Source: Plasmodiophora brassicae (lineage: Eukaryota). From it: a stretch of DNA of 64,000 bases. Of this stretch, positions 6,001-25,946 are shown in pieces (the first letter of the stretch is position 1; every line of letters starts with the position of its first letter). Below the pieces are notes generated by a model. That model had not been told where the DNA came from, ran no database searches, and saw only the letters and a program-made list of their open reading frames with translations. Position numbers and translations under genes: made by a program. Where the stretch lies: assembly GCA_036867785.1 (NCBI GenBank), contig CP145419.1:434001-498000 (forward strand). Direction: 5' to 3'.

Positions 6001-9000
6001 CTTGCGCGAGCTCAGGGGATCGCGTTCGGCATAACAACCAAGGTGCAGACGCTGAACCCCAAAGCGCAATCAGTCGCCGAGTTGTACGGTGTACTGGACC
6101 CGATGACGCGAGACTGGACGGACGGCATCCTATCTAAACTCTTCCGGGACATGAACGAACCGCTGAAAGGCGACGCTCGCGAGCAACGCTGGCTTGTGTT
6201 CGACGGTGATGTCGATGCGCTCTGGGTGGAGAACATGAACTCCGTCATGGACGACAACAAATTGCTAACGCTGCCAAACGGCGAACGTATCCGGCTGCAA
6301 GATCACGTTAAACTGCTCGTCGAGGTCGCTGATTTGCAACACGCTTCGCCTGCCACTGTCAGCCGTTGTGGTATGGTGTATGTCGACCCCAAAAACCTTG
6401 GGCATCAGCCGTTCCTAGGTATGGATCTCGCAAATCAAGGTTCCTGAATAACGTCGCTTCTAACCGACTTGCAGAGCGATGGCTGAATACGCGATCGGCA
6501 TCCAACGCGAAAGAAGTCGCTATTCTGAAGCCGCTGACCGCCAAATACGTCGATGCGTGTGTCCAATTCGCTTTGACAGGGATGACGACGTCAAACGTCA
6601 TCAGCGAAGGGGGCGCCTTGCGTCAGGTGATTCCACTGTGCGGGCTGAACCTAGTCGACCAAATGTGCACGCTGTACACCGCCGTCGCCGGCGCCGAACA
6701 ACTTGGTGACGACGAGGCCGTTATCGAATGTCTGCTCATTTTCACCATTGTCTGGTCGATTGGGAGCGCTGTTCTGGAGGGATCCCGTCATCGGCTCGAC
6801 CAGTTCATCAAGGGGCTGTCTGGACGGCAGTGTGCTGCCAACACGCCCAACAAGAGTCAGTTGCCGCAATCGTCACTCTACGACTGGTACTTTGATTTCA
6901 AAGCGAAACGATGGGTCACCTGGGCCGATGACGTCGACGACTACAAAGCGCCAGTACCCTTCCAGTTCTCTAAGATCCTGGTGCCCACGGTCGACACGGT
7001 CTGCTACACGTACATGCTGCGACGGTACTCTGAGGCGCAGCGCCCACTTCTGCTGTGCGGTTCTAGCGGTACTGCCAAGACTGTTGTCATCCAGAGGTAC
7101 ATGGACAATCTCGACCAGGACCGTTACTCCACCCTGAACATCAACTTTTCATCGCGGACCTCATCACTCGACGTGCAGCGCATCATCGAGGACAACGTCG
7201 ACAAGCGCACCGGGCACATCTATGGTCCACCGAGTGGCAAGAAACTGTTGGTCTTCTTCGACGATGTCAACATGCCCGTCGTAGACAAGTACGGCACGCA
7301 GCAGCCGATCGCCTTGCTCAAATTCCTGCTGGAACGCGGCGCCATGTACGACCGCGGCGGGGACCTGGCACTCCAGTCCATTCGCGATCTTCTCTATGTT
7401 GCAGCTATGGCGCCCCCTGGAGGTGGGAGGAACCCAGTTGATCCGCGATTCATTTCGCTATTCGCTGTTGTCAACGTCGCGTTCCCGTCGTCCGCCTCCC
7501 TCCACCACATCTATTCGTCGATCCTAATGGCACATGTCGCCGACTTCCCCGAGTCTGTCAAGGAGACCGCTTCGGCCATCACGAACGGAACGATGACGAT
7601 GTATGCGATGCTCGTGGAACGTTTGCCTCCGACACCGTCCAAGTTCCACTATATCTTCAATCTCAGGGACCTGTCCCGAGTCTTCCAGGGCCTTTGCCTG
7701 GCCCTTCCCGATACGGTCCGCGATGGGTACCAGCTCGTCCGCCTCTGGCGTAACGAGGCGCTGCGCGTGTTCCATGACCGACTGATATCCGACGAGGACA
7801 GGAAGTTGGTGCAAGAAGAGATCATCGGCAAGGTCGTCAAGGACACCTGGCCGGCGACGTTGAAGACCGTCATGCAGGACCCGATCCTGTTCGGCGACTT
7901 CCGCATGGTGAACAGCCCAACGGAATCTGCCCTCCGTATCTACGAGGACCTGGGCACGTATGAGTCCATTCGGACAATCTTCGATGGCGTCCTGCAGCGG
8001 TACAACGATGCCGCCCCAGGCAACAGCATGAACCTGGTCCTGTTCCAGGACGCGCTGGAGCATCTGACACGCATTCATCGCATCGTGCGAATGTCTCGTG
8101 GCAACGCACTCTTGGTCGGCGTCGGCGGCAGTGGAAAGCAATCACTAACACGTCTGGCAGCCTTCTGTGCCCAGATGTCGCTGTTCGAGATCCAGCTGTC
8201 CCGGGGATATGGCGAATACGAATTCCGCGAGGACCTGAAACGTCTGTACGGGATGCTTTCTAAGCAGCCGGTCGTGTTCCTGTTCACCGACGCGCACGTT
8301 GTCGACGAATCGTTCCTGGAGCTCATCAACAATATGTTGACGACGGGCATGGTCCCTGCGCTGTTCACCGACGAAGAGAAAGCGCCGCTGATCGAGTCGG
8401 TCCGCAAGGAGGTCGACAACGCCACCGCGGATGCCTGCTGGTCCTACCTCATCAACAAGTGTCGTGACAACCTGCACATCGTCCTTGCAATGTCACCCGG
8501 TGGTGACACGCTGCGTCGCCGCTGTCGGAACTTCCCCGGTCTCGTCAGGTATGCCAGGTTGCCGTTCCTTATGGTAACGCGTGGCTCATGCCCTTATAGC
8601 AATTCTGTGATCGACTGGTTCTTCGCATGGCCGGCCGATGCACTTCTCGCAGTGGCGAATCACTTCCTGGCGAACGAGGACCTCAGCACGGAGCACCGCG
8701 ACGCTGTCGTTCAGCACATGGTTCGCGTGCACCTGTCGGTCGTAACGTACAGCGCTCGGTTCCTGCAGGAGTTACGTCGGTACAACACGGTGACGCCCAA
8801 GAACTACCTGGACTACATTGGCAATTATCGTGCACAGCTACAGCAGTGCAGGCAGGAGAACGACAAGAAGGCGAAGCGGCTGGTTGGCGGTCTGCAGAAG
8901 CTGATCGAGGCCGCCGAGGCCGTCGACGCCATGCAGGAAGAGCTCCGCGAGAAGAAAGTCGTGGTTGATGCGGCCGCCGCCGAATGCGCCAAGATGATCC

Positions 9001-12000
9001 TGCAGATCCAGGAGCGCAGCGCTGAAGTCGAGGCGAAGAGGAAGTTCGCGAACGAGAAGAACGCCGAGCTGGAGGTCGAGGGCGAGCGCATCAAAGCCGA
9101 GAAGAAGATGGCCGAAGACGCGTTGGATGAGGCGCTGCCCGCGCTGGAAGCCGCTGCCGAAGCATTGAAGAACCTGAAGAAGGACGACATCACGAATGTG
9201 AAGTCGTACGCGAACCCGCCTGGCCCCGTCAAGGACGTTTGCCAATGTGTCCTGGAGTTGAAACCGTCCGGCAAGGAGGACCCTGCATCAGGGTGGGCAG
9301 GCGCCAAGTCGATGATGTCCGATCCCGCCTTCCTGTCGAAGCTGCAGAACTACCCGAGGGACGACATTACTGAGAAGCAGGTTGCTCGCGTCAAGAAGAT
9401 CCTGACGAAGAAGACGGACGCCAAGTCGGCAGTAACCGTCGAAAACCTAGAGCGCATCTCTGTTGCCGGCAAGGGCCTGCTCGTCTGGGTGCTCGCCATT
9501 ATCGATTACAACCGCGTCGCCAAGAACGTCGAGCCGCGTCGGAAGAAGGTCAAGGCGATGGAGAAGGAGATGGCGCAATCGCAGGCCGATCTACGTCAGA
9601 TTCGGCATGAGCTCGGCCTTCTCGAGGAGGAAATTGGCCGGCTCTCGCGAACGTATAGCGAGAAGAGCGAAGAAGCTACACAACTGACAGCTGAGGCCGA
9701 CAAGATGGCACAGTACTTGGCGGCCGCTTCCCAGCTTATCCAGGGTCTCGGCAGTGAACGCACCCGATGGTCCAAGGACAAGGAAGAACTCGTCGAGAAG
9801 AAGACGCGATTCGCTGGCGACTGTCTTCTGGCGGCTGCGTTCCTGTCCTACACGGGCGCCTTCACGTTTTCGTACCGAAACGAGATGATCTACAAGGACT
9901 GGCAGGAGGATTTGCGATCGCGGAAGGTCCCGCTGACAGACCCGTTCCGGCTGGAGTCACTGCTGACCACTCCTGTCCAAGTGTCGGCGTGGCTCAGCGA
10001 AGGACTGCCCGGCGATGAACTGTCGATCCAGAACGGCATACTGACGACGCAGGCGTCACGCTTCCCATTGTGTATCGATCCGCAGATGCAGGCGCTGAAG
10101 TGGATCAAGGAGAAGGAGACGCGCACGAAGAAGTTGACCGTGCAGACGTTCAACGATAGCGACTTCATCAAGTACCTCGAACTCTGCATCCAGTTCGGAA
10201 ACCCGTTCCTTTTCGAGGGCGTTGACGAGGACGTCGACCCGATCGTCAACCCGATCCTGGAGAAGAATCTGATCACGTCCGGGACCGGGTCGGCGGCCCG
10301 CAAGCAACTGCGTCTGGGCGACAAGCTCATCGACTGGGATGACGGGTTCCGTCTGTACATGGTCACCAAGCTCAGCAACCCGCACTACTCTGCCGAGCTG
10401 GCCGGTCGCGTCATGATCATCAACTACTCGGTCACGATGCAAGGGCTGGAAGACCAGCTCCTGAACGTTGTCGTCGGGTTCGAGCGCCCTGACCTGCAAC
10501 AGCAACGGGAGGAGCTCATCCAGACCATGTCGAAGAACAATATCAAGCTGGCGGAGCTCGAAGCCGTTCTGCTGCGCGAGCTTACTGAAGCGACCGGGAA
10601 CATCCTTGAGAATGCCGTCCTGATTGCCACGCTTGAGAACGCCAAGACCAAGTCGGTGTCGATCGCCGAGCAGCTGGAAGAGAGCAAGATCACGGCGCAC
10701 GAACTCGAGAAGGTGACCATGGGCTATCGGGCCGCCGCCAAGCGTGGCGCCATCCTGTTCTTCGCCATGGCCGGCCTGTCCAACGTCAGCAAGATGTACG
10801 AGTACTCGCTGTCGTCCTACCTGCAGCTGTTCGTTCGGGCGTTGTCGTCGTCGGATCGGGACCCGATGATCGCGTACCGCCTGCGAAACATCATCATTCG
10901 CCTAACGCGCATGGTCTACGACTACGTCTGCACTGGCATTTTCGAACGGCACAAGCTCATGTTCTCGTTCCAAATGACGACCATGATCATGGAAGGCGAG
11001 GAAGAAGGCAAGCTGGACAGGGACGAGGTCGACTTCTTCCTGAAGGGCAACCTGGCTCTGGAGGCGGACCTGTCCACGAAACCGGCCGAGTGGATATCGG
11101 CGCAGACCTGGCGCGACGTCCTGCGCCTCTCTGAACTGTCGGACCAGTTCGCTGGCCTACCCGTGCACATCGCCGACCATCTCGGCGAATGGTACGCATG
11201 GCAGGCCGGCGAAAGGCCCGAAGACGACCCGCTGCCGGCCGGGTTCGCCGGCGGAGCGCTGACCAAGATGCAGACCATGCTGGTCCTTCGTTCGTTCCGT
11301 CCCGATCGCGTCTACAGCGATGTGCGCCGGTTCGTGGTGCAGACCATGGGCGACCCGTACTTCGTGCAGCCGCCCGTGCTCGAGTTCGGTCGCATCTACG
11401 CGCAGTCGTCGTCGAAATCGCCAGTCGTCTTCATCCTGTCGCCCGGCGCCGACCCCATGATCGAACTCGACAAGCTCGCCGAGCTCCATGGCGTCAAGCA
11501 GGCGAACCGCTTCAGGCACCTCGGTACGTGGGAACGTGCCGGTTCAGTTTGTCAGGGGGTGGTGTCTCATCGATGCCTTAGCACTTGGTCAGGGTCAGGG
11601 CGAGATCGCGTTGAACCTGCTGAAGTCAGGGTCGTCGCGTGGGTTCTGGGTGGTCCTCCAGAACTGCCACCTGATGCCCTCCTGGCTGAAGACGCTAGAG
11701 AAGACTCTGGAGACCATGTCGGTCACGGCGGTTCACAACGATTTCCGCCTATGGCTGACAACGGACCCGACGCCTCGGTTCCCGCTGGGCATTCTGCAGC
11801 GGTCGCTCAAGGTCGTCACCGAACCGCCCGACGGCCTACGCCAGAACATCAAGAGTTCCTACTCGCGTATCACTGACGACATGCTGCGCGAATGCCCTCA
11901 CGCTGCGTTCCCATCGCTTGTCTACGTCCTCAGCTTCTTCCACGCCGTCGTCCAGGAGCGCAGGAAGTACGGCAAGATTGGCTGGAACGTGTCGTACGAC

Positions 12001-13320
12001 TTCAACGAGTCCGACTTCAATGTGTCGCTGCGCCTCCTGTCCATGTACCTGACGAAGGCGTTCGTCAACGGCGACGAGATGATCCCATGGGGGTCACTGC
12101 GTTACCTGATCGGCGAGGCCATGTACGGCGGGCGGGTCACCGACTCGTACGACCGTCGCGTGTTGATCACCTACCTGGACGAGTACATGGGCGACTTCCT
12201 GTTCGACGACTCGCAACCGTTCTTCTTCTCACGCAGCGGGTTCGACTACGTGATCCCGAACGTGGCGAACCAGACGGACGTGAAGTCGTACGACGCGTGG
12301 ATCCAGGCGATCCCGCTGGAGTACTCGCCCGAGGTGTTCGGCCTGCACAGCAACGCCGAGATCGGCTACTACACGAACGCGACCAAGGCAATGTGGCGCG
12401 ACCTGATCGACATGCAGCCGAGAGCGGTGACAGCGGGCGGAGGCGTGTCCCGCGAGGAGATGATCGCATCGGTGGCCGCCGACATCGAGCACAAGATTCC
12501 GGCCCCGTTCGACCTAGCCGTTGTCAGGAAGTCGCTGGAAGACGGCGCCGCCGCTCGCGCGAATCGCAGCGATGAACCGATTGCCCCGACCGCCATCGTC
12601 CTGCTGCAGGAGCTGGAACGGTGGAACCTGCTGGTCGTCAAGATGTCGACGTCGCTGGCGGAACTCCAGAAAGCGCTCCAGGGCGAGATCGGTATGTCCA
12701 CCGAGCTCGAAGCTATCGGCACGTCGCTGTTCAACGGGTACCTGCCGGAAGCGTGGCGCGCACTGGCGCCACAGACGAAGAAGATGCTGGGCAGCTGGAT
12801 CGAGCATTTCCAGCGGCGGTACGAGCAGTACCATCAATGGATCCTGACGGGGGACGACCCCGTGGTCATGTGGCTCAGCGGCCTGCACATTCCCGAGTCG
12901 TACCTGACGGCCCTGGTGCAAACCACGTGCCGGCGACGCAAGTGGCCCCTGGACAAGTCGACGCTGTACACAAAGGTGACCAGCATAACGGACGCCAGCC
13001 AAGTCACCGAACGCCCTGCCGACGGGTGCTACATCGACGGGCTGTACCTGGAGGGTGCCGGATGGGACCTGACGAAATCCTGCCTAACGCGCCCGAACCC
13101 GAAAGAGCTGATCGTGCGCCTCCCCATCCTGCAGGTCATCCCCGTCGAGCTGACCAAGCTGAAACTGGCGAACACGTTCCGGACGCCCGTCTATGTCACC
13201 CAGGACAGGCGGTCGGGCATGGGCGAAGGATGCGTCTTCGAAGCCGACCTGACGGCCAACGAGCACGCTAGTCACTGGGTCCTCCAAGGCACCGCCCTCG
13301 TTCTCAACACCGATGCATAA
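1..13320 (+). CDS. DNAH10: Axonemal dynein heavy chain, inner-arm I1/f alpha type (DNAH10-like); multi-exon, 5' part outside the window
   Basis: ORFs 449-2095, 3607-5919, 6366-11876 and 11488-13320 join through short GT-AG introns (e.g. 233-302, 382-433, 3050-3104, 8549-8599). P-loops GPAGTGKT (AAA1), GSSGTAKT (AAA3) and GVGGSGKQ (AAA4); motifs CFDEFNR and LCIDPQ; coiled-coil stalk. The C-terminus [15 protein letters not shown] resembles the DNAH10 ending. Confidence 0.93.
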
Positions 13321-13525: not shown

Positions 13526-14533
13526 TCACGGTTCATAGCAGCCGTCTGTAGGTTCCCACAAGCACTGGTTTCTTCCAGCACGTTGACATCCAGGGCATGT
13601 TTGGCGCTCCTGAGAGTGGGTGATTCGTGAGCTGTTCTTGTCCATGAACATCCAACAGCGGAACACGTCCACAACATCTGCAGCCTGATTGTGCAACGTT
13701 TCTGAGGAAACCGTGGTCGGCAAGGCATCATACACAACAGATTGTGCGAATGGAACATAATCTGTCAGATATCTGCGCGAAAGCAACCACGAGCAATGAC
13801 ATTTCGCGCACTGCTGTTTCGTCAGCAACATTCGCGTTGACGCTGTTTGGGGTTCCGCCTTTAAGACAACGGTGCTCAACAGAAATGGTTCCATACCATC
13901 GGCCAACGCTGAATACTCTGCAAGGTCCTCGCTACAGGTCCCTGCGACACTATGGGTACAGTCGGCGTCTTTGTTGGCGAACCGTTTCACGTAATTATGC
14001 CAAGGAACAGCGTTTGCAACGGTTAAGAGATTATCCCTCAGAGCGTCAGCTTGCAGCAACGTGTGCTCTGCTGAGTCAACTGTTCCTTTCACCAGAATAC
14101 CGAATTCATCACGTAGCCTTTCCTTGATTCGTTGATATTTCTGGCGCATGTCCAGGGCATCAAACGCGTTGGACGAAGCAATCGCATTGAGGCATCGTCG
14201 ACCGTAATTGCTGACAGCCACGTACTTCTTCACGATGAACTCGTCTTCTTGCAACGCTGCTGCGCTCACCACTGTTACATGGATGGGGCGAAATTTAGCG
14301 TTCTCTCTTCTTAGCCTCGATGTTAAGAAGGCACATGATTCTACCAGAATACTCTCAAGCAACCGCGCTGCGGTTACAGCGTCATCGACGCTGTCCCTGA
14401 ACGTGCTTGTGCAGTAATGATTTACAGGCCCGCCCCACATCGCTTGTAGGGCTTGGTTGAAAACTGGAGGCGGCAGGTACGAGAAAACAGGAATTGCTAA
14501 ACTTAGAGCGATTATCGGGCGGTACAGCGACAT
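13526..14533 (-). CDS. Putative secreted protein (signal peptide) with a degenerate C-terminal Cys-rich/RING-like region; effector candidate
   Basis: Uninterrupted ORF; ATG at 14533 gives MSLYRPIIALSLAIPVFS (hydrophobic leader). The C-terminal region has CAKC...H...FRCW...CPGC. Confidence 0.6.
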   Translation of the reverse strand: MSLYRPIIALSLAIPVFSYLPPPVFNQALQAMWGGPVNHYCTSTFRDSVDDAVTAARLLESILVESCAFLTSRLRRENAKFRPIHVTVVSAAALQEDEFIVKKYVAVSNYGRRCLNAIASSNAFDALDMRQKYQRIKERLRDEFGILVKGTVDSAEHTLLQADALRDNLLTVANAVPWHNYVKRFANKDADCTHSVAGTCSEDLAEYSALADGMEPFLLSTVVLKAEPQTASTRMLLTKQQCAKCHCSWLLSRRYLTDYVPFAQSVVYDALPTTVSSETLHNQAADVVDVFRCWMFMDKNSSRITHSQERQTCPGCQRAGRNQCLWEPTDGCYEP

Positions 14534-14717
14534 CGTGTTCTTGGGTACTAACAACGACACACCGTCCCAGCGGTGTTGTGTGCAGCGGGCGATTTTGAAG
14601 GTTTGGCACGCTGGCTGGACGACCTTCGCACACTCGGGTCACGCGGAACACAAAAGTGCGCCCTGGTGCCCAAATTAGGTGAGCGCTGGTCGTCGTCGCC
14701 GAGTGTGCAGCTTTGAA

Positions 14718-15368
14718 ATGAGTCCGACGTCGATGTTGTTGGCATTGGCCCTAGGCGTCTGCATGTCATGTGTTATTGGGGCGGTGTCTACCGTCGAAGT
14801 TGACGGTGTGGAATACAAGGTCAAGTCTCGAGATGAGTCTCTTCGCGATGAACGCGAGCGAGCCTCCGCGTACGATGCAAGCGTGGTCGAGCATGTCCAG
14901 CACACGCACGACTTCAACTATGAGGTGCTGCGCGAGAAGCTCGCGAACCGTGACCTTCCAGGAGCGAAAGCGTACATTTCGGATTGGAAACGCGTGCTGG
15001 AGGATCCCGAGGTGGAGGACAGCCGTACGACTGTGCTCATTCAAGTCATCATTTCGAGCCTTGCGGACAGTGATGTGCTGGAACTTGCCAGTTTCATTCT
15101 TCAGGAAATTCATTTGGATTTCGAACCTGATCGGCAGGACGAGCCCGTCGATTGCTTGAGCGCCGCCCGTTACGCCGGTCGCCGAAACATCACCCAGCAG
15201 CTTTCGGCACTGTTTGACCTGCATCACTCATCTAGCCCTGAACCGGATGAATGTCGGTGCAACCGACAAGGTGTGATTTCACCACCGCAACGCGTGGCGT
15301 TCGGCAGATTTCAGGTGCCTGCGAAGCGTCGTCTCTCTCACCCGTATGATTCTCCCGAAACGGACTGA
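14718..15368 (+). CDS. Putative small secreted protein, possibly with degenerate ankyrin-like repeats; effector candidate
   Basis: Uninterrupted ORF; leader MSPTSMLLALALGVCMSCVIGA. DCLSAARYAGRRNITQQL resembles an ankyrin helix-turn-helix. Divergent from the 13526-14533 gene. Confidence 0.6.
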   Translation: MSPTSMLLALALGVCMSCVIGAVSTVEVDGVEYKVKSRDESLRDERERASAYDASVVEHVQHTHDFNYEVLREKLANRDLPGAKAYISDWKRVLEDPEVEDSRTTVLIQVIISSLADSDVLELASFILQEIHLDFEPDRQDEPVDCLSAARYAGRRNITQQLSALFDLHHSSSPEPDECRCNRQGVISPPQRVAFGRFQVPAKRRLSHPYDSPETD

Positions 15369-15599
15369 ATACGACATTGCAAGCGTTATCATTTCTCATT
15401 TTACTAAACTTGGTTATTCCGTTATGCATGCATGCTCCAGTGACTGCTTAGTATAGACTACCTATGTAGCTGGGTGGGACGTAGACCCCCCGTCAAATGA
15501 AAATTTGCTTATACGCGTCATCGGCGATGCTGAGCGGTATCTGCGATTTCGCTTCGGCCGGACATTATTGTAATACATTGGCGAGCCCCAAACACGAAC

Positions 15600-17178
15600 A
15601 TAAGTCAGCGTCACGCACATATCACCCCCCCCCCTCCCCCTGTCGCGGAGAATGCTGCAGCACAGTGTCGGACGGATGCCGCCAGTCACGCAGGATGCAC
15701 ATCCAGGACTGTCGCCGGTCGGTTCTCCCTCCGCGGCTGGCGACAACGAACCAGGCCACGTACAGGTTGTGCACGCTTTCCAGATCTCATTGCCGGGCGC
15801 GTACTGCGTATGACCCCGCCTGACACGACTGGCATGCGTACTGGTTCGCACCGACCGCCATGCGGTACTGTTCAAGCGGGCATTGCGCGATCGCGAACGA
15901 CGTCGGCTTGGTGAAGGATGACACACCACCAGCACCCCCTCCGACGCTCGCTGTGATCGTGAAGGTAAATACCGACCCCGAGGCGGCAGCCAGCTTCCAT
16001 CCCGTCAGCGTTGCGACTCCGTTCGGCACCGCGTGCGATATCGACGCCCCAGTCACCGTGTATGCGCCCGTCGCCGGCGTCGACGATGGCGTCCCGCCGA
16101 TGACAACTTGCAGTGTCGACTCATCGGCGACGCGTTGCCCGAACTTGTCGACGGCCTGGACGACGACCGCGTTCCCGCCAGCATCCACGACGGGCGCCTC
16201 GCTGACCTGCAACGCGGCCGGTGTCGCCACGAGCCCGATCCCGCACAGGTCTGATGCGAAGTCGTTGCCGTATGACGATGCCGTATTTGCCGACCAGATG
16301 TTCGAGCCGTCCAGCAGGACGGAAATGCGATTGCAGTCCGACGACGACCTGGAGGAGGTGGACAGGAACAGGCCGGCGCCTTTGCTGGCCGTGTTGCCCG
16401 CGAAGGTCGACCCGGCGACAACGAGCGCGGACGTCGCGATCGAAGTCGTGACGGTGATACGCAGCGCGCCCGCACCCCGATTGTTCGTGAACGCGCACGC
16501 ACCGATCGTCATGGTCGCGCATCGCCCTGTAATGGAGCATGCGATCGTGACGGCCGGCGTGGTCGTCGCGCCGGTGAACGTCGACGAATTCAGGTGAGCG
16601 TTGGCGATGTCCGTGAGCTGCAGTGCGTCATTCGTGAAAGCCAGGCCGGTCACGGCGAACGAGTACGCGGCCTTCACGTTGAGGCAGGGCGACGACGACG
16701 GGCAGGTCACCGTGGCCGTATCCGATGGAGACGCGCGTGTCAACGTCACGGAGAACAGGCCTGTGTACGACCCGTCGGCGATCGTGACTGTCGTCGTGGA
16801 CGTGACGCCAAGCGACGGCAGGAGAGCGAGGGCGCCCGAGATGGCCCCGCACGGTGTCGATCCGAGCGACGCGAGACATGAGTCATGACGCATCGTTGCC
16901 GGTCGGCGACACCGATGCCGACCCGAAACACGTCTGCGCGCAGTATGGCAGCTGGTTGTTGGAGAGCGGCGGGGGCCACCGTGCCACACATGTCATGCCG
17001 GGCGGCAGCGCCCTACACGGTCGTACGAATCAATACATGAGAAGCGACACTGATAACTGCCGAACAGTTGACTGTGCGTTAAACGAGGAAGCGAATCGAA
17101 GATGGCGAACGGGACCTGCGTGTACCTGTTCGTTGCGCCGCCCACGTCCAGACTGGTCAGTCCGGTCAGCGTGTCGAA
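15600..17178 (-). pseudogene. 3' part of a disrupted surface-protein gene: LRR fragment, Pmp-like (GGA/FxxN) beta-helix repeats and Cys-rich (GCC2/GCC3-like) repeats
   Basis: 17074-17178 reads FDTLTGLTSLDVGGATNRYTQVPFAIFDSLPRLTH (LRR-like). ORF 15787-16989 has FTNNRGAGAL, FAGNTASKGAGL, WSANTASSYGND and CPLEQY...CQSCQAGSY. The Cys-rich pattern continues in another frame (KACTTC...CASC), implying a frameshift or decay. Boundaries are approximate. Confidence 0.6.
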
Positions 17179-17207
17179 CCTATGGTGATGCGAGGCATGG
17201 CATGTAA

Positions 17208-17387
17208 TGATTCATAATGGGAAGGCTAGCGACAGTGGCCGACCCATGAGTCACGACGACGTGACGCAACTGGTGCACAGTGGCGACCGTGCCACTGTGT
17301 GTGCGACGTCATGGGGACGTCGGCTTCCCCCACGTTAGATACACTGGGGACTTTCACTTTCCTAAGCGCTTCGAACTGCTTGAATCA
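17208..17387 (+). repeat. 5' LTR (180 bp)
   Basis: Starts TGATTCA and ends TGAATCA (7-bp terminal inverted repeat); identical by eye to 22154-22333. Confidence 0.98.
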
Positions 17388-17401
17388 GATTAAGAGTCCC
17401 A
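17388..17401 (+). promoter_or_regulatory. Primer-binding site complementary to the anticodon arm of tRNA-Lys(CUU) (half-tRNA primer)
   Basis: GATTAAGAGTCCCA directly follows the LTR. Its reverse complement TGGGACTCTTAATC matches positions ~27-40 of eukaryotic tRNA-Lys(CUU) as I recall the sequence. The usual TGG start of a 3'-CCA PBS is absent. Confidence 0.8.
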
Positions 17402-17408
17402 CTCTCTG

Positions 17409-18878
17409 ATGGCGACGATCCCAAGCATCCCAGCCGACCTGGCCCAAGCAGAGGCCGTGATCGCCCAGATAAGCGCTGCGCTGTCCGAGGCCCAGCGGCA
17501 GCAGGATCGGCTGGAGGCGGAGGTTGAACGTCTGCAAGCAGCGGCGGCCGGGAGCGGGACCGGCCAGCGCGAGAACGCGGCGCTCAAGGATCGTCTGGCG
17601 CGGCTGGAAGCTGCGCAGAAGGAAAGGCTGACGGGCCTGAAGGAGTCCGGCATCAAGATCTCCGTCCAGCTGAAGGGCAAGGACAATTACCTGGTCTGGG
17701 CGTCGTCGATGACGACGATGCTCAAGAAGTCGGGCCTGCAAAAGGCCGTGGAGCCCGCGACGCGCGGGCACAACGAAGAGCCGGCGTCGGAGCAAGAGAG
17801 GCTCCACGCAATGTACGCTATCAAGAAGAACGTGCATGAAGACGAACTTCCCTTGATACTCGACATACCCGACGACCGTCCGGACCTGGCGTGGAGCGCC
17901 ATCCAGACGGAGTATTCCGGCCAAACGGGCACGGACCTGGCGATGTTCGACATTCTTCTGTCAACAACAAAGCTTAAGGCGGGCGCCGACCTCACGGAGA
18001 CCAAGGCGCACCTGACGGCGATGCGCGACCTGGGCATCAACCTGGCCCGGGCGGATCCGAATCGGACGAAGACTGAGTCGGACATGGCGACGAAGGTCCT
18101 TATCTCGCTGCCATACACCGAGTACAAGGACTTAGTCAACGCGATGCTGCGCGGTCCCATCGGAGAGCTGACGCAAAGCAAGGTCCGCGCAGAAGTGCTC
18201 GCTCAGTACAAGCGGGGAGCGATAGAGCGCGGCGACGACGACAGCGGCTCCTCGGCGGCCATGACGACGACGGGGTTCTCCGGCAAGTGCTTCAACTGTG
18301 GAAAGGCTGGACACAGGGCGGCCGACTGCCGTAGCCGCAAGAAGACCGGCAACGCCGAGCGCGGCAAGGCCAGGAACGGCAAGCGGAAGGGGGGCAAAGA
18401 GGAAGGCGGTTCGGCGTCGATCGCGCTCCTGACGAGCCTGGCGGGCGTCGAGGACGCGCCGCGGAAGGGCATCCGCGACTTCATCGTCGACAACGCGGCG
18501 ACGTGCGGCCACGTGTCCACCCACAAGGCGCACTTCGAGGAGCTGGACTTCATCGCCGACAAGGACCGGCCGACGATCGGCGGCATCGGCCCGCAGCGAA
18601 TCAAGGTCCATGCCAGGGGCAACGTCCGCCTCAAGCTGGCTAACGGCAAGTCGATCACGCTGACAAACGTCGCGTACGCGCCAGATGCATCCGCGAACAT
18701 CTTCGCGGTGCGTTCGGCACTCCTGCAGCTCGGCAAGGACGGCAAGACGGGCGCGGAGCACCATGAGCAGACGCGCTCAGCCCGGCTCCTGGACGGGGCC
18801 GGAAGGACGATCGTGACCAGTACGGTCCGCAAGGGCCTGTACTACCTGGATCTGCACAAGGTCCAGGATTTCGAGTAG
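17409..18878 (+). CDS. gag: Copia ORF1: Gag (coiled coil, CCHC zinc knuckle) plus aspartic protease
   Basis: Zinc knuckle CFNCGKAGHRAADC; protease-like FIVDNAATCGHV and ITLTNVAYAPDASANIFAV; ends GLYYLDLHKVQDFE*. Confidence 0.92.
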   Translation: MATIPSIPADLAQAEAVIAQISAALSEAQRQQDRLEAEVERLQAAAAGSGTGQRENAALKDRLARLEAAQKERLTGLKESGIKISVQLKGKDNYLVWASSMTTMLKKSGLQKAVEPATRGHNEEPASEQERLHAMYAIKKNVHEDELPLILDIPDDRPDLAWSAIQTEYSGQTGTDLAMFDILLSTTKLKAGADLTETKAHLTAMRDLGINLARADPNRTKTESDMATKVLISLPYTEYKDLVNAMLRGPIGELTQSKVRAEVLAQYKRGAIERGDDDSGSSAAMTTTGFSGKCFNCGKAGHRAADCRSRKKTGNAERGKARNGKRKGGKEEGGSASIALLTSLAGVEDAPRKGIRDFIVDNAATCGHVSTHKAHFEELDFIADKDRPTIGGIGPQRIKVHARGNVRLKLANGKSITLTNVAYAPDASANIFAVRSALLQLGKDGKTGAEHHEQTRSARLLDGAGRTIVTSTVRKGLYYLDLHKVQDFE

Positions 18879-18923
18879 CGGGGGTGGCGCTGGCCGCCCC
18901 CGATCACGATCATCCAAACCAGC
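18866..18923 (+). promoter_or_regulatory. Predicted -1 programmed ribosomal frameshift signal (slippery heptamer plus stem-loop/pseudoknot)
   Basis: G_GAT_TTC at 18866-18872 in the ORF1 frame; 6-nt spacer GAGTAG; stem 18879-18888/18893-18902; GCTGG (18889-18893) is complementary to CCAGC (18919-18923). Confidence 0.8.
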
Positions 18924-21900
18924 CAGAAAACAAGAGCCCGAGCAAGGAGGAGCCGGCCGAGAAGAAGGAAACGCGCAAGCCCGCGGACGTAAAGCGCGAC
19001 AGAACGATATCATTGGCGGAGGCGCACGCGAGGTGCGGCCACCTGTCCACGATCACGATCAGAAAGGCAGTCAAGAACGGGGCAATCACCGGTCTCAACA
19101 TCGACGAGGCCGACCTGGCGAGCGACGAGGTGCCCAGGTGCAAGGTGTGCATCGAGGCCAACCTCAACCGAACGGCGATCCCGCGGAGACGGACACGGAC
19201 GGTGCTCTCGAAGCTGCAGATCGTCGGGGCGGACCTGCAGACGTTCGACACCAGGTCGCATGACGGAAAGACGTACATGGCGTGCTACGTTGACCACGCG
19301 ACTGGTGTCGGTGCCACGGTCAACCTGGCAAATAAGGGTGACCAGGAGCAAGTCGTCATGGACGTGCTGACCCGGCTCGAGGTCATGGGCGGCACACGCG
19401 TCGACACGTTCCGCGCCGACCAGGGCGGCGAGTTCACCTCGACGCGCCTGGCGAAGCTGCTGCGCGAGCGGGGAATCGCACAGGAGTTCAGCGACACGGA
19501 CCGCCCGCACCAGAACGGTCTCGCGGAGACGTTCGGTGGCAAGATTGTCAAGATGATGCGCGCAGCTCGTGTCCAGTCAGGCGTCCCGCGCAAGTACTGG
19601 ACCGAGAACGGGCGGCATCAGACGTGGGTAGCCAACCGCGTGCCGCTCCAACGACACGGCCACCGGACGACGCCAATCGAGGAACTGACGGGGGAACAAG
19701 CAGACCTGTCGAGGGCGATGCCATTCGGTTGCGAGGCGTGGGTCAGGATCCGGCGGCAAAAGAAGTGCAAGCTGGACGCCAGGGCCGAGCGCGCGGTCCA
19801 CATGGGGGTGTGCATCGACAAGAAGGCGTACCGGCTGCTGCTGTGGCACAGCCGCAAGATGATCGAGTCTTCGGACGTGGTCTTCTTCCCCAACGAATTC
19901 CCGTTCAAGGATGACAGCGGCTCCCGCGGAGAGGAGACCCGCAAGCGCCAAGAGACGGCGCAAGCCCAGCTGCAAGGAGGCGGCGATGGCGGTCAAGACG
20001 ATCGTCATGGGCAAGAAGACGACGGCGGTCGGGACGATCGCGTCGCACGACAAGACGACGGCGATCGAGAAGGTCGCGTCGGTCAACAACAGGGCGGCGG
20101 CCAGGATGGCCGCGCCATTCAGCGAGGCGGCGGCGGGGACGACCGTGCCAGGGAACTCGCAGGTGCCGGTGAAGACCGGCATGACGGACGCGATGAGCAA
20201 GCAGCTCAGGGCGGCGGGGATCGAGGACCTGCTGCTCAAGGCGTCCCTGAACCGAGGCGGTCGACGCGCATCAGAGGAGCGCCCGCTCGGTTTGCCGACG
20301 TGGACTACGACGGCGAAGCGCGGCGCCAGAGGGCGGCCAGCGCCAGGGCGGCAGCAGGGGCTGCCGACAACGTCGACCAGGCGGCAGCAGCAGATGCTGT
20401 CGACCACGACAACGAGGCCAACGACGACCCGGACAACGAGGACCAGGTCAACCAGGACGAGGCGCTCGAGAACGAGGACAGCTACCTGGAGGAGGAGGAC
20501 GCTGGCAACGCGTTCCTCACTGAGTACGAGGCCGAGAACGGGCCTGACCGGGACAAGTACCTGGCGGCGCAGGTCGAGGAGATGCAGTCGCTGAAGGAAG
20601 CGGGCACGTATGAGATCGTGGACCGCCCGACCGACGCTCAAGTGCTGCCAACAATGTTCGTGCACACGACGAAGCGCGACGAGGACGGGGAGATCACGCG
20701 CCACAAGGCCCGCTTCTGCGTCAAGGGATGCTGCGACAAGTTCAAGGGCCAGAAGGAGACGTACTCGCCGACGCTCCGGTATGCGACGTTGCGCATCATG
20801 GTGGCGCTGGCGGCCATGCTGGGCGTGGTCATCCACCAGCTGGACGTTAAGACGGCGTTCCTGAATGGAGACCTGCCGTACCCGATCTACTGTGAACAGC
20901 CGAAGAACTTCGTGGTCGGAGGACGCGGCAAGGTGATGAAGCTCCTGAAGGCGCTGTACGGCCTGGTCGAGGCGCCGAAGCTCTGGTACGATAAGCTCGT
21001 ATCAGTTCTGTTCGAAATCGGCTTCACAAGGGTGACCGGCGACCCGTGCCTGTTCGTTATGTTCACGACGAAGGACGGCCGCAGACAGATCACGATCCTC
21101 GGGGTGTTCGTGGACGACTTTATGATGTTTGGCACGGATCCCGACGTCATCGAGTACGTCAAGGCAGCGTTGGGCAAGAAGTTCAAGATGAAGGACCTCG
21201 GCATCGCGAGATGGATCCTGGGGATGCGCATCAAGCAGGAGGCAACGCGCATCACGATCGACCAACAGCAGTACGCCAAGGAGGTGGTCGCGCGGTTCCA
21301 GACCGACATCGACGAGGCAGCCGCCGGGCGCCGCTTGCGCGCGCCGGCCACGGCTCTGCCTGTCGGGCAGATTATGCCCCGGCGAACCGACGGTGTTCCG
21401 CACCAGCATGAGCGGTACCGCGAGGGCGTTGGTTGCCTGGCGCATCTGTCGATCGGCACGATGCCGACAATCACGCACGCGGTGTCGCAGCTGTCGCGTC
21501 ACCTGAACAACCCGGGTCGGGAGCATTTCGAGGCGATGCTCCACGTGCTGCGATATGTCCAGAACAACACGGATGTCGGCATCATCTACGCGAAGAGCAA
21601 GACACCGGCGACTGAATTCGACCCGATGGCACTGAACAAAGACAACGTGAAGGAGTCGGAGCCCCGGGCGGCGGTCGACTCGGACTTTGCGATGGACCCG
21701 GACACATCCAAGTCGGTCACGGGATTCATCGTCACGCTGATGGACGCAGCTGTGAGCTGGCGATCGAAGCAGCAAAGCCTGGTGGCGACCTCCTCAGCGC
21801 ACGCGGAGTACGTGGCGGCCAGCGAGCTGGCGCGTGAAGTAGTGTGGGTCCGGATGCTCCTCACCGACATCGGGTTCACTCTGACGGACCCGTCGATTGT

Positions 21901-22147
21901 GCTGGAGGACAACACGGCTGCCGAGCAGATGGTGAAGACGCTCGGGGTCACGGACCGGAACAAGCACATTCGGGTGAAATGGCACTATGTGCGAGAGTGC
22001 GTCCAGGAGGGACTGCTCCGGTTCGAGCGCGTGGCGTCAAAGAACAATCCGGCGGACGCGCTCACCAAGCCGACCACTCGTGAACCTGTGGAGGTCATGA
22101 AGAGGGCGGCCGGGATGGGTCGGGTGGACCTGTCGCTGGCGCCTTAG
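18869..22147 (+). CDS. pol: Copia ORF2: integrase, reverse transcriptase and RNase H, in the -1 frame relative to ORF1 (no nearby ATG)
   Basis: IN zinc finger AHARCGH...CKVC; DDE core ADLQ/RADQGGEF/QNGLAE; RT QLDVKTAFLNG, LYGLVEAP and VFVDDF; RNaseH VDSDFA, AEYVAA, EDN and NPADALTK. Confidence 0.95.
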   Translation, partial: FRVAGVALAAPDHDHPNQPENKSPSKEEPAEKKETRKPADVKRDRTISLAEAHARCGHLSTITIRKAVKNGAITGLNIDEADLASDEVPRCKVCIEANLNRTAIPRRRTRTVLSKLQIVGADLQTFDTRSHDGKTYMACYVDHATGVGATVNLANKGDQEQVVMDVLTRLEVMGGTRVDTFRADQGGEFTSTRLAKLLRERGIAQEFSDTDRPHQNGLAETFGGKIVKMMRAARVQSGVPRKYWTENGRHQTWVANRVPLQRHGHRTTPIEELTGEQADLSRAMPFGCEAWVRIRRQKKCKLDARAERAVHMGVCIDKKAYRLLLWHSRKMIESSDVVFFPNEFPFKDDSGSRGEETRKRQETAQAQLQGGGDGGQDDRHGQEDDGGRDDRVARQDDGDREGRVGQQQGGGQDGRAIQRGGGGDDRARELAGAGEDRHDGRDEQAAQGGGDRGPAAQGVPEPRRSTRIRGAPARFADVDYDGEARRQRAASARAAAGAADNVDQAAAADAVDHDNEANDDPDNEDQVNQDEALENEDSYLEEEDAGNAFLTEYEAENGPDRDKYLAAQVEEMQSLKEAGTYEIVDRPTDAQVLPTMFVHTTKRDEDGEITRHKARFCVKGCCDKFKGQKETYSPTLRYATLRIMVALAAMLGVVIHQLDVKTAFLNGDLPYPIYCEQPKNFVVGGRGKVMKLLKALYGLVEAPKLWYDKLVSVLFEIGFTRVTGDPCLFVMFTTKDGRRQITILGVFVDDFMMFGTDPDVIEYVKAALGKKFKMKDLGIARWILGMRIKQEATRITIDQQQYAKEVVARFQTDIDEAAAGRRLRAPATALPVGQIMPRRTDGVPHQHERYREGVGCLAHLSIGTMPTITHAVSQLSRHLNNPGREHFEAMLHVLRYVQNNTDVGIIYAKSKTPATEFDPMALNKDNVKESEPRAAVDSDFAMDPDTSKSVTGFIVTLMDAAVSWRSKQQSLVATSSAHAEYVAASELAREVVWVRMLLTDIGFTLTDPSIVLEDNTAAEQMVKTLGVTDRNKHIRVKWHYVRECVQEGLLRFERVASKNNPADALTKPTTREPVEVMKRAAGMGRVDLSLAP

Positions 22148-22153
22148 GGCGGC
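22146..22153 (+). promoter_or_regulatory. Short polypurine-tract-like sequence overlapping the pol stop
   Basis: AGGGCGGC lies immediately before the 3' LTR. Confidence 0.55.
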
Positions 22154-22333
22154 TGATTCATAATGGGAAGGCTAGCGACAGTGGCCGACCCATGAGTCAC
22201 GACGACGTGACGCAACTGGTGCACAGTGGCGACCGTGCCACTGTGTGTGCGACGTCATGGGGACGTCGGCTTCCCCCACGTTAGATACACTGGGGACTTT
22301 CACTTTCCTAAGCGCTTCGAACTGCTTGAATCA
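22154..22333 (+). repeat. 3' LTR (180 bp)
   Basis: Identical to the 5' LTR and followed by the TSD TGTAA. Confidence 0.98.
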
Positions 22334-22338
22334 TGTAA

Positions 22339-22462
22339 TGCCATAGATAGGTTGCATGGGAGCGTGGCCAGGTGATTCGACGCGAGCGTCAACGACAACA
22401 GGTTCGTCAACCGCGACAAATTCCTGATGCCGATGCTTTCTAGGCCGTAGTTCGACAAATCG
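22339..22462 (-). pseudogene. LRR-coding fragment upstream of the copia insertion (same broken gene as 15600-17178)
   Basis: Minus strand reads DLSNYGLESIGIRNLSRLTNLLSLTLASNHLATLP (LxxLxLxxNxL pattern). No intact 5' end is visible. Confidence 0.6.
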
Positions 22463-22879
22463 CTTTGGTGACATCGTCTCATACTGCACATTCCCGCGCC
22501 TGTTCGTCGGTTGCAATGTTGGCCTCGCTGCGCCTTGACTGCCTGAAGAATCCCATGACGGACAAGCGACGGCTGGCGTCTCCTGTCCACCACATGCCAG
22601 AGGCCATTAGGTCGTTTCGCATCAGGAGCTGCAAGCAGTTCACCCAAAGATGATGGGCGCATTTACAGAAGAGGAGCAGGTTGCGTTGTCTTCGTAGAGG
22701 ATGCGTTGGACCGTGGTCAAAAGGTCCCTGTTTTTTTTAGGCGCTTGGCTCCATGCCGGGGCGCCTGCGTGTCTGCGGACCGGGGAGCCGACCCGGTGCG
22801 GAAAGGCCGTGCAGCTGCAGCGCATCGGACCGTCAGCACTGGGGGGTGGACGAGTCGTCGTCGTTGGGCTGTAGGACCG

Positions 22880-23841: not shown

Positions 23842-23972
23842 GTACGACCCCAGTCGGTCAGACAACCAGTTCCAGTGCCCTACGGTGTGGTCCCAGTCGT
23901 GAAACAACCAGTGCCGTTCGGGAAAACGGACTGCGCCTCGAGGACTGAGGAGCAGACTGATATTGGATCGAT

Positions 23973-25946
23973 ATGGCGAGGCCATGGTCTTCGTGCATGG
24001 TGGTCGTGCTGACACTGCTGGTCGTCGGCGCGCGGGGATCCGGTTCCGAACTTCCGTCTTGGTTGGTAAGCGTCACCGAGGAAGAAATGCATTCAGCGCC
24101 GCGTTATCGTAGCCCGCGTGGCCCTGTCCAGCCCGAGATGAGCAGCGCCGACGATGTCGACCCAAAGGCACAGCTAGGTGAAGCTGCGGTGCAAGCGACC
24201 ATGGCGCGCGACTTCCTCAAATCGGTCCTTCAAGATGCTGTGCCCATGATCGACACGAACCGCTACAGACAGAAACGCATCAAGAGGAGTCTCCAAGAAG
24301 TAGTCGAACTAATTGCACCGATGATGGCACAAGATGTGCCGGATGTTCTGTCATGGGTCTACTCCCACTCGAGCATGGCGTCGGTGCAGTCATGGATCGC
24401 GGCTGCAGAACCAGGGTCACAAGATGACGCGTTCAATATTGCGCAGGCAGTATACAAGCTGATCAAGCTGTCTCAAGGCGAAGTTATTAGTGCTGCACGA
24501 TACGATGAGCGATTTTGCGACTTCGTGATCGAGGAGCCTGGAGGCTTGACGTGGAGGCTTCTTTCTTTAGATCCTTCTGGCGGGCGTTGCCAAAACCAAG
24601 ACCAGGAAAATATGTTTCTGACAGACGAGATGGTCAAGGCCCATCAGCCTGATCTGTACATGATGTACGCTATGACAATGTCTGATCCTACTGACATCGA
24701 GAACATCAAAAACATGATCGATATTGCACGTACTCTGGAAGAAAATGATGCCTTGTCATATAACCTGTTCCTCCGCGTTGAAGAACTGGCACACTATTCG
24801 GCCGTGTTTCGTGCATTGTTTCCTCTGATCCGCAACCACCCGCTCTATGATAGAATTGATGAAACGCCAAGCCTGTATCTGGACGAGTTGATGTTGAGCG
24901 TCGACGACAAGCTTCAACGTATCCTTATTGCATCCATGAACTACGTCACCAAGGTCGAGCATTATCAGCAGGACTCTTGTTATACGATCAGAGACTGGCA
25001 GAACTCGGGCAAGAGAACCGAGGTAGTCAAGGCAACAATGAGGGCTGCAATGAAGGCGGCAGCTTGGGAAGTCTTTGAAGTCCAGGTAGACGATGACCTC
25101 ACTACCCCACTGTTCCCGCTAAAGGAACCGAAGACACGGAACAAGAGGGCAAAGAAGACGAAGAAGAAGAGGCGACAACCTGAGAGTGACGCCGGATTGT
25201 ACGCCAAGTATGATGAGGGCATGGGGTCGGCAAGTACCAGTCTTGGCGTCGGCGACGTTCAGTCCAGCTCCTGCGATGACTCTGGAGCCGGTCAGTGGAG
25301 CTGTGAGGTTGGCGACTATGTTCAGCAAGCACCCGAAGGAGCCGGTCAGTGGAGCTATCGAGCTGGCGACCATGTTCACCAAGCATACGAAGGAGCCGGA
25401 CATTGCAGCTATGAAGGTGGCGGCTATGCTCACCAAGCATACGAAGACGGGCAGGCGAGCTATGACGCTGGCGACTCTGCTCTGGAAGCATTCGAACATC
25501 TCGCGATCACACCCACGCACGTCACCGACGACCAGTACGAGCGCTCTTACCTGAACGAGGGCACCGGGCAGTACTGGCAGGATACCGTCGCGTCCGGGAG
25601 CAGTGTCCTGCCTTCGTCACCGACAAAGCGTGGACGCAGGTCCCGGCGCAAAGCAGCAGCTGCTGCACGATGTGATCATCAAGGCAGAGACGACGCCGTG
25701 CCGACGGCGACCAGGCTGCCCGACGAACTACCGACTAGGCTCGACAGGTTCGTGACGACGATGTCGGCACACTTCAAGATGCGACAGAGCTGTACCCAAG
25801 GCACTCTCCACTTCTACGACAAGGAAACGGGCGAGTCTGTGTTCAGCATGCATCGCCCACACGGCAAGAAGAACGCCGACATCCGCCCAGATGTCCTGAA
25901 TCGCATCCACAGCAGTCTACGCGCGTACGAAGATCAGCGCCGCTGA
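23973..25946 (+). CDS. 657-aa putative secreted protein with basic NLS-like tracts, 18-aa repeats and a C-terminal HicA-like domain; effector candidate
   Basis: Uninterrupted ORF; leader MARPWSSCMVVVLTLLVVGARG; basic tracts KTRNKRAKKTKKKRR and KRGRRSRRK; C-terminus GTLHFYDKETGESVFSMHRPHGKKNADIRPDVLNRIHSSL. Confidence 0.75.
   Translation: MARPWSSCMVVVLTLLVVGARGSGSELPSWLVSVTEEEMHSAPRYRSPRGPVQPEMSSADDVDPKAQLGEAAVQATMARDFLKSVLQDAVPMIDTNRYRQKRIKRSLQEVVELIAPMMAQDVPDVLSWVYSHSSMASVQSWIAAAEPGSQDDAFNIAQAVYKLIKLSQGEVISAARYDERFCDFVIEEPGGLTWRLLSLDPSGGRCQNQDQENMFLTDEMVKAHQPDLYMMYAMTMSDPTDIENIKNMIDIARTLEENDALSYNLFLRVEELAHYSAVFRALFPLIRNHPLYDRIDETPSLYLDELMLSVDDKLQRILIASMNYVTKVEHYQQDSCYTIRDWQNSGKRTEVVKATMRAAMKAAAWEVFEVQVDDDLTTPLFPLKEPKTRNKRAKKTKKKRRQPESDAGLYAKYDEGMGSASTSLGVGDVQSSSCDDSGAGQWSCEVGDYVQQAPEGAGQWSYRAGDHVHQAYEGAGHCSYEGGGYAHQAYEDGQASYDAGDSALEAFEHLAITPTHVTDDQYERSYLNEGTGQYWQDTVASGSSVLPSSPTKRGRRSRRKAAAAARCDHQGRDDAVPTATRLPDELPTRLDRFVTTMSAHFKMRQSCTQGTLHFYDKETGESVFSMHRPHGKKNADIRPDVLNRIHSSLRAYEDQRR
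25284..25478 (+). repeat. 54-bp (18-aa) intragenic tandem repeat, ~3.5 copies
   Basis: Units start with GGAGCCGG at 25284, 25338 and 25392, with a degenerate 4th at ~25446: GAGQWSCEVGDYVQQAPE / GAGQWSYRAGDHVHQAYE / GAGHCSYEGGGYAHQAYE. Confidence 0.9.

Follow-up and report, generated by a model that had tools for sequence, protein, structure and literature searches.

An intact Ty1/copia retrotransposon of Plasmodiophora brassicae with a putative primer-binding site for a 5' fragment of tRNA-Lys(CUU)

The window, by which we mean the whole 64-kb stretch of Plasmodiophora brassicae DNA that was analysed, carries near its start a gene for an axonemal dynein heavy chain of the I1-alpha/DNAH10-like type (419-13320), which extends over at least four long reading frames, presumably separated by short introns. 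The best named relatives of this dynein come from algae, oomycetes, chytrids and animals and share only about 50% identity with it. An LTR retrotransposon is located 3.9 kb downstream of the gene, and three long frames in the flanking DNA (370, 401 and 661 codons; 13526-16992 and 23961-25946) gave no match to Pfam. The LTR pair of 180 nt, 100% identical, is the sole such direct repeat in the 64-kb window, and further LTR elements are absent from the window. The retrotransposon is an intact, recently inserted member of the Ty1/copia group (Pseudoviridae), and is composed of the following features.

17203..17207, + strand: left copy of the target-site duplication, TGTAA, 5 bp, read directly
17208..17387, + strand: 5' LTR of 180 nt with TG...CA ends and a 7-nt terminal inverted repeat, found as a direct repeat with 100% identity
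17388..17401, + strand: core of the candidate primer-binding site, GATTAAGAGTCCCA, complement of nt 27-40 of tRNA-Lys(CUU)-type sequences
17402..17407, + strand: possible extension of the primer site, with four of six bases complementary to tRNA nt 21-24 and mismatches at 25 and 26
17409..18878, + strand: gag-protease frame, 489 aa, with Retrotran_gag_2 (below threshold), zf-CCHC and Pol_BBD (Pfam)
18767..22147, + strand: integrase-RT-RNase H frame, open over 1126 codons, with rve (below threshold), SH3_retrovirus and RVT_2 (Pfam)
22146..22153, + strand: putative weak polypurine tract, six of eight purines, assigned by position only
22154..22333, + strand: 3' LTR, identical to the 5' LTR, found as a direct repeat
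22334..22338, + strand: right copy of the target-site duplication, TGTAA, read directly

In the first frame the zf-CCHC and Pol_BBD (protease barrel) families score above their Pfam cutoffs, while Retrotran_gag_2 remains below with 24.8 bits against a cutoff of 27. In the second frame SH3_retrovirus and RVT_2 (E 3.6e-54) are above the cutoffs, and the integrase core rve is below with 30.2 bits against 32.6. The order of domains is gag, protease, integrase and RT-RNase H, and the position of the integrase before the RT is the Ty1/copia order. The TG...CA ends of the LTRs together with a 5-bp duplication, a further criterion for Ty1/copia, are likewise present. Since the LTRs are identical, the insertion is framed by the 5-bp duplication and both the gag-PR and the IN-RT-RH frames are open, this appears to be a young and probably active copy, and the bases adjoining its LTR should for this reason be a working primer site.

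Two details of the second frame are recorded here as observations. Between the integrase SH3-like domain and the RT there is a low-complexity stretch rich in Gly, Asp, Arg and Gln (19900-20570, approximately residues 215-430 of P0002), for which no Pfam family was matched. At the end of the frame the polypurine tract (22146-22153) overlaps the pol stop codon and adjoins the 3' LTR, and it is unusually poor for a seemingly active element.

The IN-RT-RH frame is in -1 relative to gag-PR and overlaps it by 112 nt (18767-18878). No canonical slippery heptamer of the X XXY YYZ type is found in this 112-nt overlap, the only candidate being a relaxed C AAG GGC. The database proteins nearest to the pol are 15 metagenome proteins with 44-55% identity and P0019 (45% over 63% of the query), and among named copia proteins (fungi, Volvox, plants) the identity does not exceed about 34% over most of the query length. 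In a FastTree phylogeny of 62 database matches (P0002-P0061, P0074 and P0088, with the remaining matches left out and without GyDB/REXdb references), the window pol and 16 relatives form one group of 17, whose branch has a length of 0.88 and an SH-like support of 100. All 16 relatives are devoid of the gag and protease-barrel Pfam families, and the longest of them, with approximately 1040-1080 aa, come near the 1126-codon pol frame of the window. Among the more distant matches of at least 1200 aa, most carry gag and protease fused to pol. Because the relatives are without gag and protease domains and of similar length, the separate IN-RT-RH frame may be regarded as a feature of the clade and not as a mutation of this copy, as the sequence comparison suggests. 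A distinct copia lineage marked by the change of frame between protease and integrase had been proposed before, and both the 17-member clade and the domain content of the relatives support it.

The 14 letters GATTAAGAGTCCCA (17388-17401) start at the base directly after the terminal CA of the 5' LTR, where the original prediction had placed the primer-binding site, and they are single-copy in the 64-kb window even when up to two mismatches are allowed. The reverse complement, TGGGACTCTTAATC, can be read as an anticodon arm, composed of a five-letter stem strand, a seven-letter loop and two bases pairing with 31 and 30. In the loop, 33 is T, 34-36 are CTT and 37 is A. By direct reading, the two other loop registers with T at 33 put a pyrimidine at 37, which leaves CTT (Lys) as the only sensible anticodon.

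Such an anticodon-arm pattern occurs in 936 of the 127,974 14-mers of the window (0.7%), and the chance of one given 14-mer is approximately 2e-9 under the window composition, or 2e-7 if 100 distinct arms are allowed. These figures bear on the explanation that the site is a relic or a chance resemblance, in a copy unable to prime or using some other mechanism. In its favour, the examination covered a single copy, and the collections scanned yielded no relatives with a 5' end; both the low chance figures and the combination of 100% identical LTRs with two open frames, which argues for a very recent successful reverse transcription, make it very unlikely.

The viral-contig collection was scanned with the full arm of 17 letters, that is the 14-mer and the three letters closing the stem. 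Two matches were obtained, both inside tRNA-Lys-type sequence: the first (L045) is a gene called tRNA-Lys(ctt) by ARAGORN in a phage tRNA cluster, the second (L046) is part of a eukaryote-type tRNA-Lys, has CCA at its end and is contained in an 8.5-kb viral record; its 5' part is missing, and hence it received no ARAGORN call. In an alignment of these two with the reverse complement of the site (A2) the positions T27-C40 are invariant (14/14), and so are A21, G22, A23 and G24. The CUU anticodon stem-loop noticed earlier is thereby matched at 14 of 14 positions (nt 27-40) by two sequences of the tRNA-Lys(ctt) type, which come from a phage contig and a viral record and not from Plasmodiophora brassicae. 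The longer span proposed at the outset (17388-17407) is also meaningful, as it complements nt 21-40 of both sequences at 18 of 20 positions, 25 and 26 being the mismatched ones. The anticodon stem of tRNA-Lys(CUU) varies between lineages. In the 64-kb window itself ARAGORN and Rfam, the latter at gathering thresholds, found zero tRNA genes each.

The L046 piece deserves mention in its own right. It occupies 118-181 on the minus strand, near one end of the record, corresponds to the 3' two-thirds of a eukaryote-type tRNA-Lys(CUU), and appears to be a primer tRNA that was captured, or else to have arisen by recombination.

Contigs from the sequencing runs X6, X1, X11 and X7 were aligned to the phage tRNA cluster L045, used as a stand-in reference, at 80% likeness; contigs resembling human DNA had been dropped before this step, which could hide a conserved eukaryotic tRNA-Lys. 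Ten different contigs (12 pieces) were aligned, none of them from X7. Three contigs on the tRNA-Lys gene of L045 differ from it in 9 of 55 letters, with depths of 299 (X1), 491 (X11) and 5.2 (X6), and their flanks resemble what we take to be plant organelle tRNA. The other pieces on this gene are short contigs with a depth of 2-4.5, and no host tRNA-Lys could be read from the aligned pieces. DNA of the element itself occurs in runs labelled 'plant metagenome' and in others that carry either of two coded organism labels. Taken with the axonemal dynein gene, this indicates a flagellated and probably plant-associated host, for which the protein search gave no close named relative. Separately, twelve small runs guessed to be RNA (X7, X8, X10 and X12-X20) contain 96-98% of the sampled words of the element (17000-22500); if they are RNA, this would mean full-length element transcripts. 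None of the runs containing the element is annotated as RNA.

The best reading of 17388-17401 is, in our judgement and going by sequence, that a 5' fragment of tRNA-Lys(CUU), in other words a half-tRNA, probably serves as primer. [quoted passage not shown] Reverse transcription would then start at nt 40, whose 3'-OH lies in the 3' strand of the anticodon stem, and the primer would be the tRNA truncated to its first 40 nt or so, as in the Hemivirus-type elements copia, 1731, Ty5 and Osser. In the established retroviral scheme minus-strand DNA begins at the base immediately 5' of the paired primer, and the cDNA has its right end at this base, except for the few bases that the integrase trims. 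As both LTRs have the same CA end, the 3'-OH of the primer must lie opposite 17388 or within a base or two of it. Lys(CUU) reads a codon starting with A, like iMet, Ile, Arg(UCU) and Asn, and should as these carry t6A at 37; this modification being common to known half-tRNA primers, a Lys primer poses no extra problem. No account of the cut at nt 40 is known to us, not even for copia and Ty5. The match to the tRNA stops at nt 40, which is the position given for the 3'-OH of the Hemivirus primer in the relevant part of PMC1181622. The earlier proposal of a tRNA-Lys 5' half of about 39-40 nt may in this way be kept as to its register, with the end at nt 40; that the host has a tRNA-Lys(CUU) with the matching arm, and that this tRNA is cut at nt 40 into the half that primes, we infer.

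The reading is made from the sequence of the site, and another host RNA with ...GGGACUCUUAAUC at or near its 3' end, whether another isodecoder or isoacceptor of tRNA, a small RNA resembling a tRNA or a piece of a non-tRNA, might take the place of the primer. We consider this unlikely, since CTT is the only anticodon that fits when T33 and a purine at position 37 are required of a seven-letter loop, both full-arm matches in the viral collection are of the tRNA-Lys type, and nt 21-24 match the D-stem of tRNA-Lys as well.

Priming by the 3' end of a tRNA and self-priming were the two alternatives named with the original prediction, and both were checked. The site begins with GAT and not TGG, so that no tRNA CCA end can pair at the junction. 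The sole TGG within 40 nt is at 17410-17412, 22 nt off the LTR, in TGGCGACGATCC..., where it overlaps the start of gag. A full-length tRNA priming there through its CCA end, with the Lys-like 14-mer as a coincidence, is scarcely credible. The complement, read by us as a tRNA 3' end, does give a C at 61 and a plausible acceptor strand, but the implied position 56 is G and not the conserved C. Moreover, priming at 17410 would copy 22 nt into the end of the 3' LTR, whereas the 3' LTR has the same CA end as the 5' LTR, and the exact match of the 14-mer to tRNA-Lys arms would be left unexplained.

Self-priming, known from Tf1/Sushi and proposed for plant copia elements of the TAR type, would have the 5' end of the transcript fold onto the site and be cut to yield the primer. 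A GGGACT in the LTR at 17347 does complement part of the site. However, the longest complement in the LTR to the first 20 nt after it is only 6 nt, which 418 of 1000 shuffled LTRs equal or surpass, the best ungapped match to the 14-mer in the LTR is 9/14, and a second GATTAAGAGTCCCA with two mismatches or fewer is absent from the window. We hold this mechanism to be highly improbable.

Of the tRNA-Lys(CUU) fragment as primer an extended version can be proposed, in which the whole clade (17 pol sequences from soil and plant-associated eukaryotes) has switched to this 5' fragment, expresses IN-RT-RH through a non-canonical frame change after the protease, and relies for the cut at nt 40 on an element or host activity distinct from the loop cutters that produce stress halves. 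This is speculative and rather unlikely; if true, a new tRNA-fragment pathway in this lineage could become visible through the activity of the elements. A metagenome scan using the pol protein, in search of relatives with a 5' end, gave none. A metagenome scan with alignment A1 gave 44 loci (L001-L044), of which the closest four (L001-L004) are 1.0-2.6 kb long and without 5' ends. Among the loci of at least 3 kb, LTR pairs are present only in L010, L021 and L027/L028, whose elements are 26-31% identical, and the LTR junctions of these are not readable as anticodon arms. ARAGORN called no tRNA in the 44 loci. The scan of the viral collection for relatives of the element gave none and that of the genomes one distant contig of 2.4 kb.

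The finding would add tRNA-Lys(CUU) to the anticodon-arm primers of copia elements, in a poorly sampled eukaryotic lineage. For annotation it means that tools seeking only tRNA 3' ends would call an intact and apparently active element primer-site-less. The understanding of half-tRNA priming is left unchanged; the mechanism would be the ordinary one, with a tRNA that we did not find reported for it in the literature searched, the supplementary tables of which (including those of Neumann et al.) may list more primer types. The novelty claimed at first was overstated, as half-tRNA priming with several tRNAs is already in print in the sections seen of PMC6317226, PMC10886601 and PMC4139406. The background given with that claim, namely iMet for copia and Ty5 and Arg for Candida, agrees with the parts seen of the literature (PMC6317226, PMC10886601, PMC1181622, PMC4139406).

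As far as the excerpts of these papers go, the Hemivirus elements Ty5, Osser, 1731 and copia are primed by a half-tRNA and begin their cDNA at the 3'-OH of nt 40 in the anticodon stem-loop, and the type of primer does not track the RT phylogeny (PMC1181622). In a survey of plants, half-tRNA sites were present only in Ty1/copia, where Osser, Bryco and part of Gymco-II have Met and Bianca has Ile (PMC6317226, in part). In fungi, Copia and Helenus families employ the anticodon loop in the tRNAs for Tyr, Ile, Asp, iMet and Asn (excerpt of PMC10886601), and elements of Candida internal regions of tRNA-Arg(UCU) and iMet (excerpt of PMC4139406).

The element described here resembles the Hemivirus type (Drosophila copia and 1731, yeast Ty5, Volvox Osser, plant Bryco and Gymco-II), as presented in the excerpts of PMC1181622, PMC6317226 and PMC8515867, in a site which adjoins the 5' LTR, is without TGG and complements an anticodon stem-loop. 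It also shares with this type the order gag-PR-IN-RT-RH, the 5-bp duplication and, by the predicted register, the primer 3'-OH at nt 40. Unlike the Hemivirus type, which uses the initiator tRNA-Met, its site reads Lys(CUU); it also has PR and IN in different frames, and its pol clade is without a named member.

Full-length tRNA-Lys-primed retroelements use the same species of tRNA, but pair with its 3' 18 nt including CCA, whereas the site of the window corresponds to nt 27-40. HIV-1 is primed by tRNA-Lys3. Full-length tRNA-Lys primers are also described, in the passages seen, for Drosophila gypsy with tRNA-Lys2 (PMC1635307) and for plant non-chromovirus Ty3/gypsy (PMC6317226). Tf1/Sushi are likewise without a tRNA 3' end; unlike in them, complementarity between LTR and site is here no better than chance.

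Close in kind are also the half-tRNA elements with primers other than iMet, which likewise use an anticodon arm and in which the tRNA switches during evolution, although the excerpts of PMC6317226, PMC10886601 and PMC4139406 describe none with Lys. The Arg(UCU) loop, by our own reading, has the anticodon letters in a different order from those of the window site. For iMet, Ile, Arg, Tyr, Asp and Asn half-tRNA priming is on record in the sections of the literature cited above, and the element of Plasmodiophora brassicae would be one more case.
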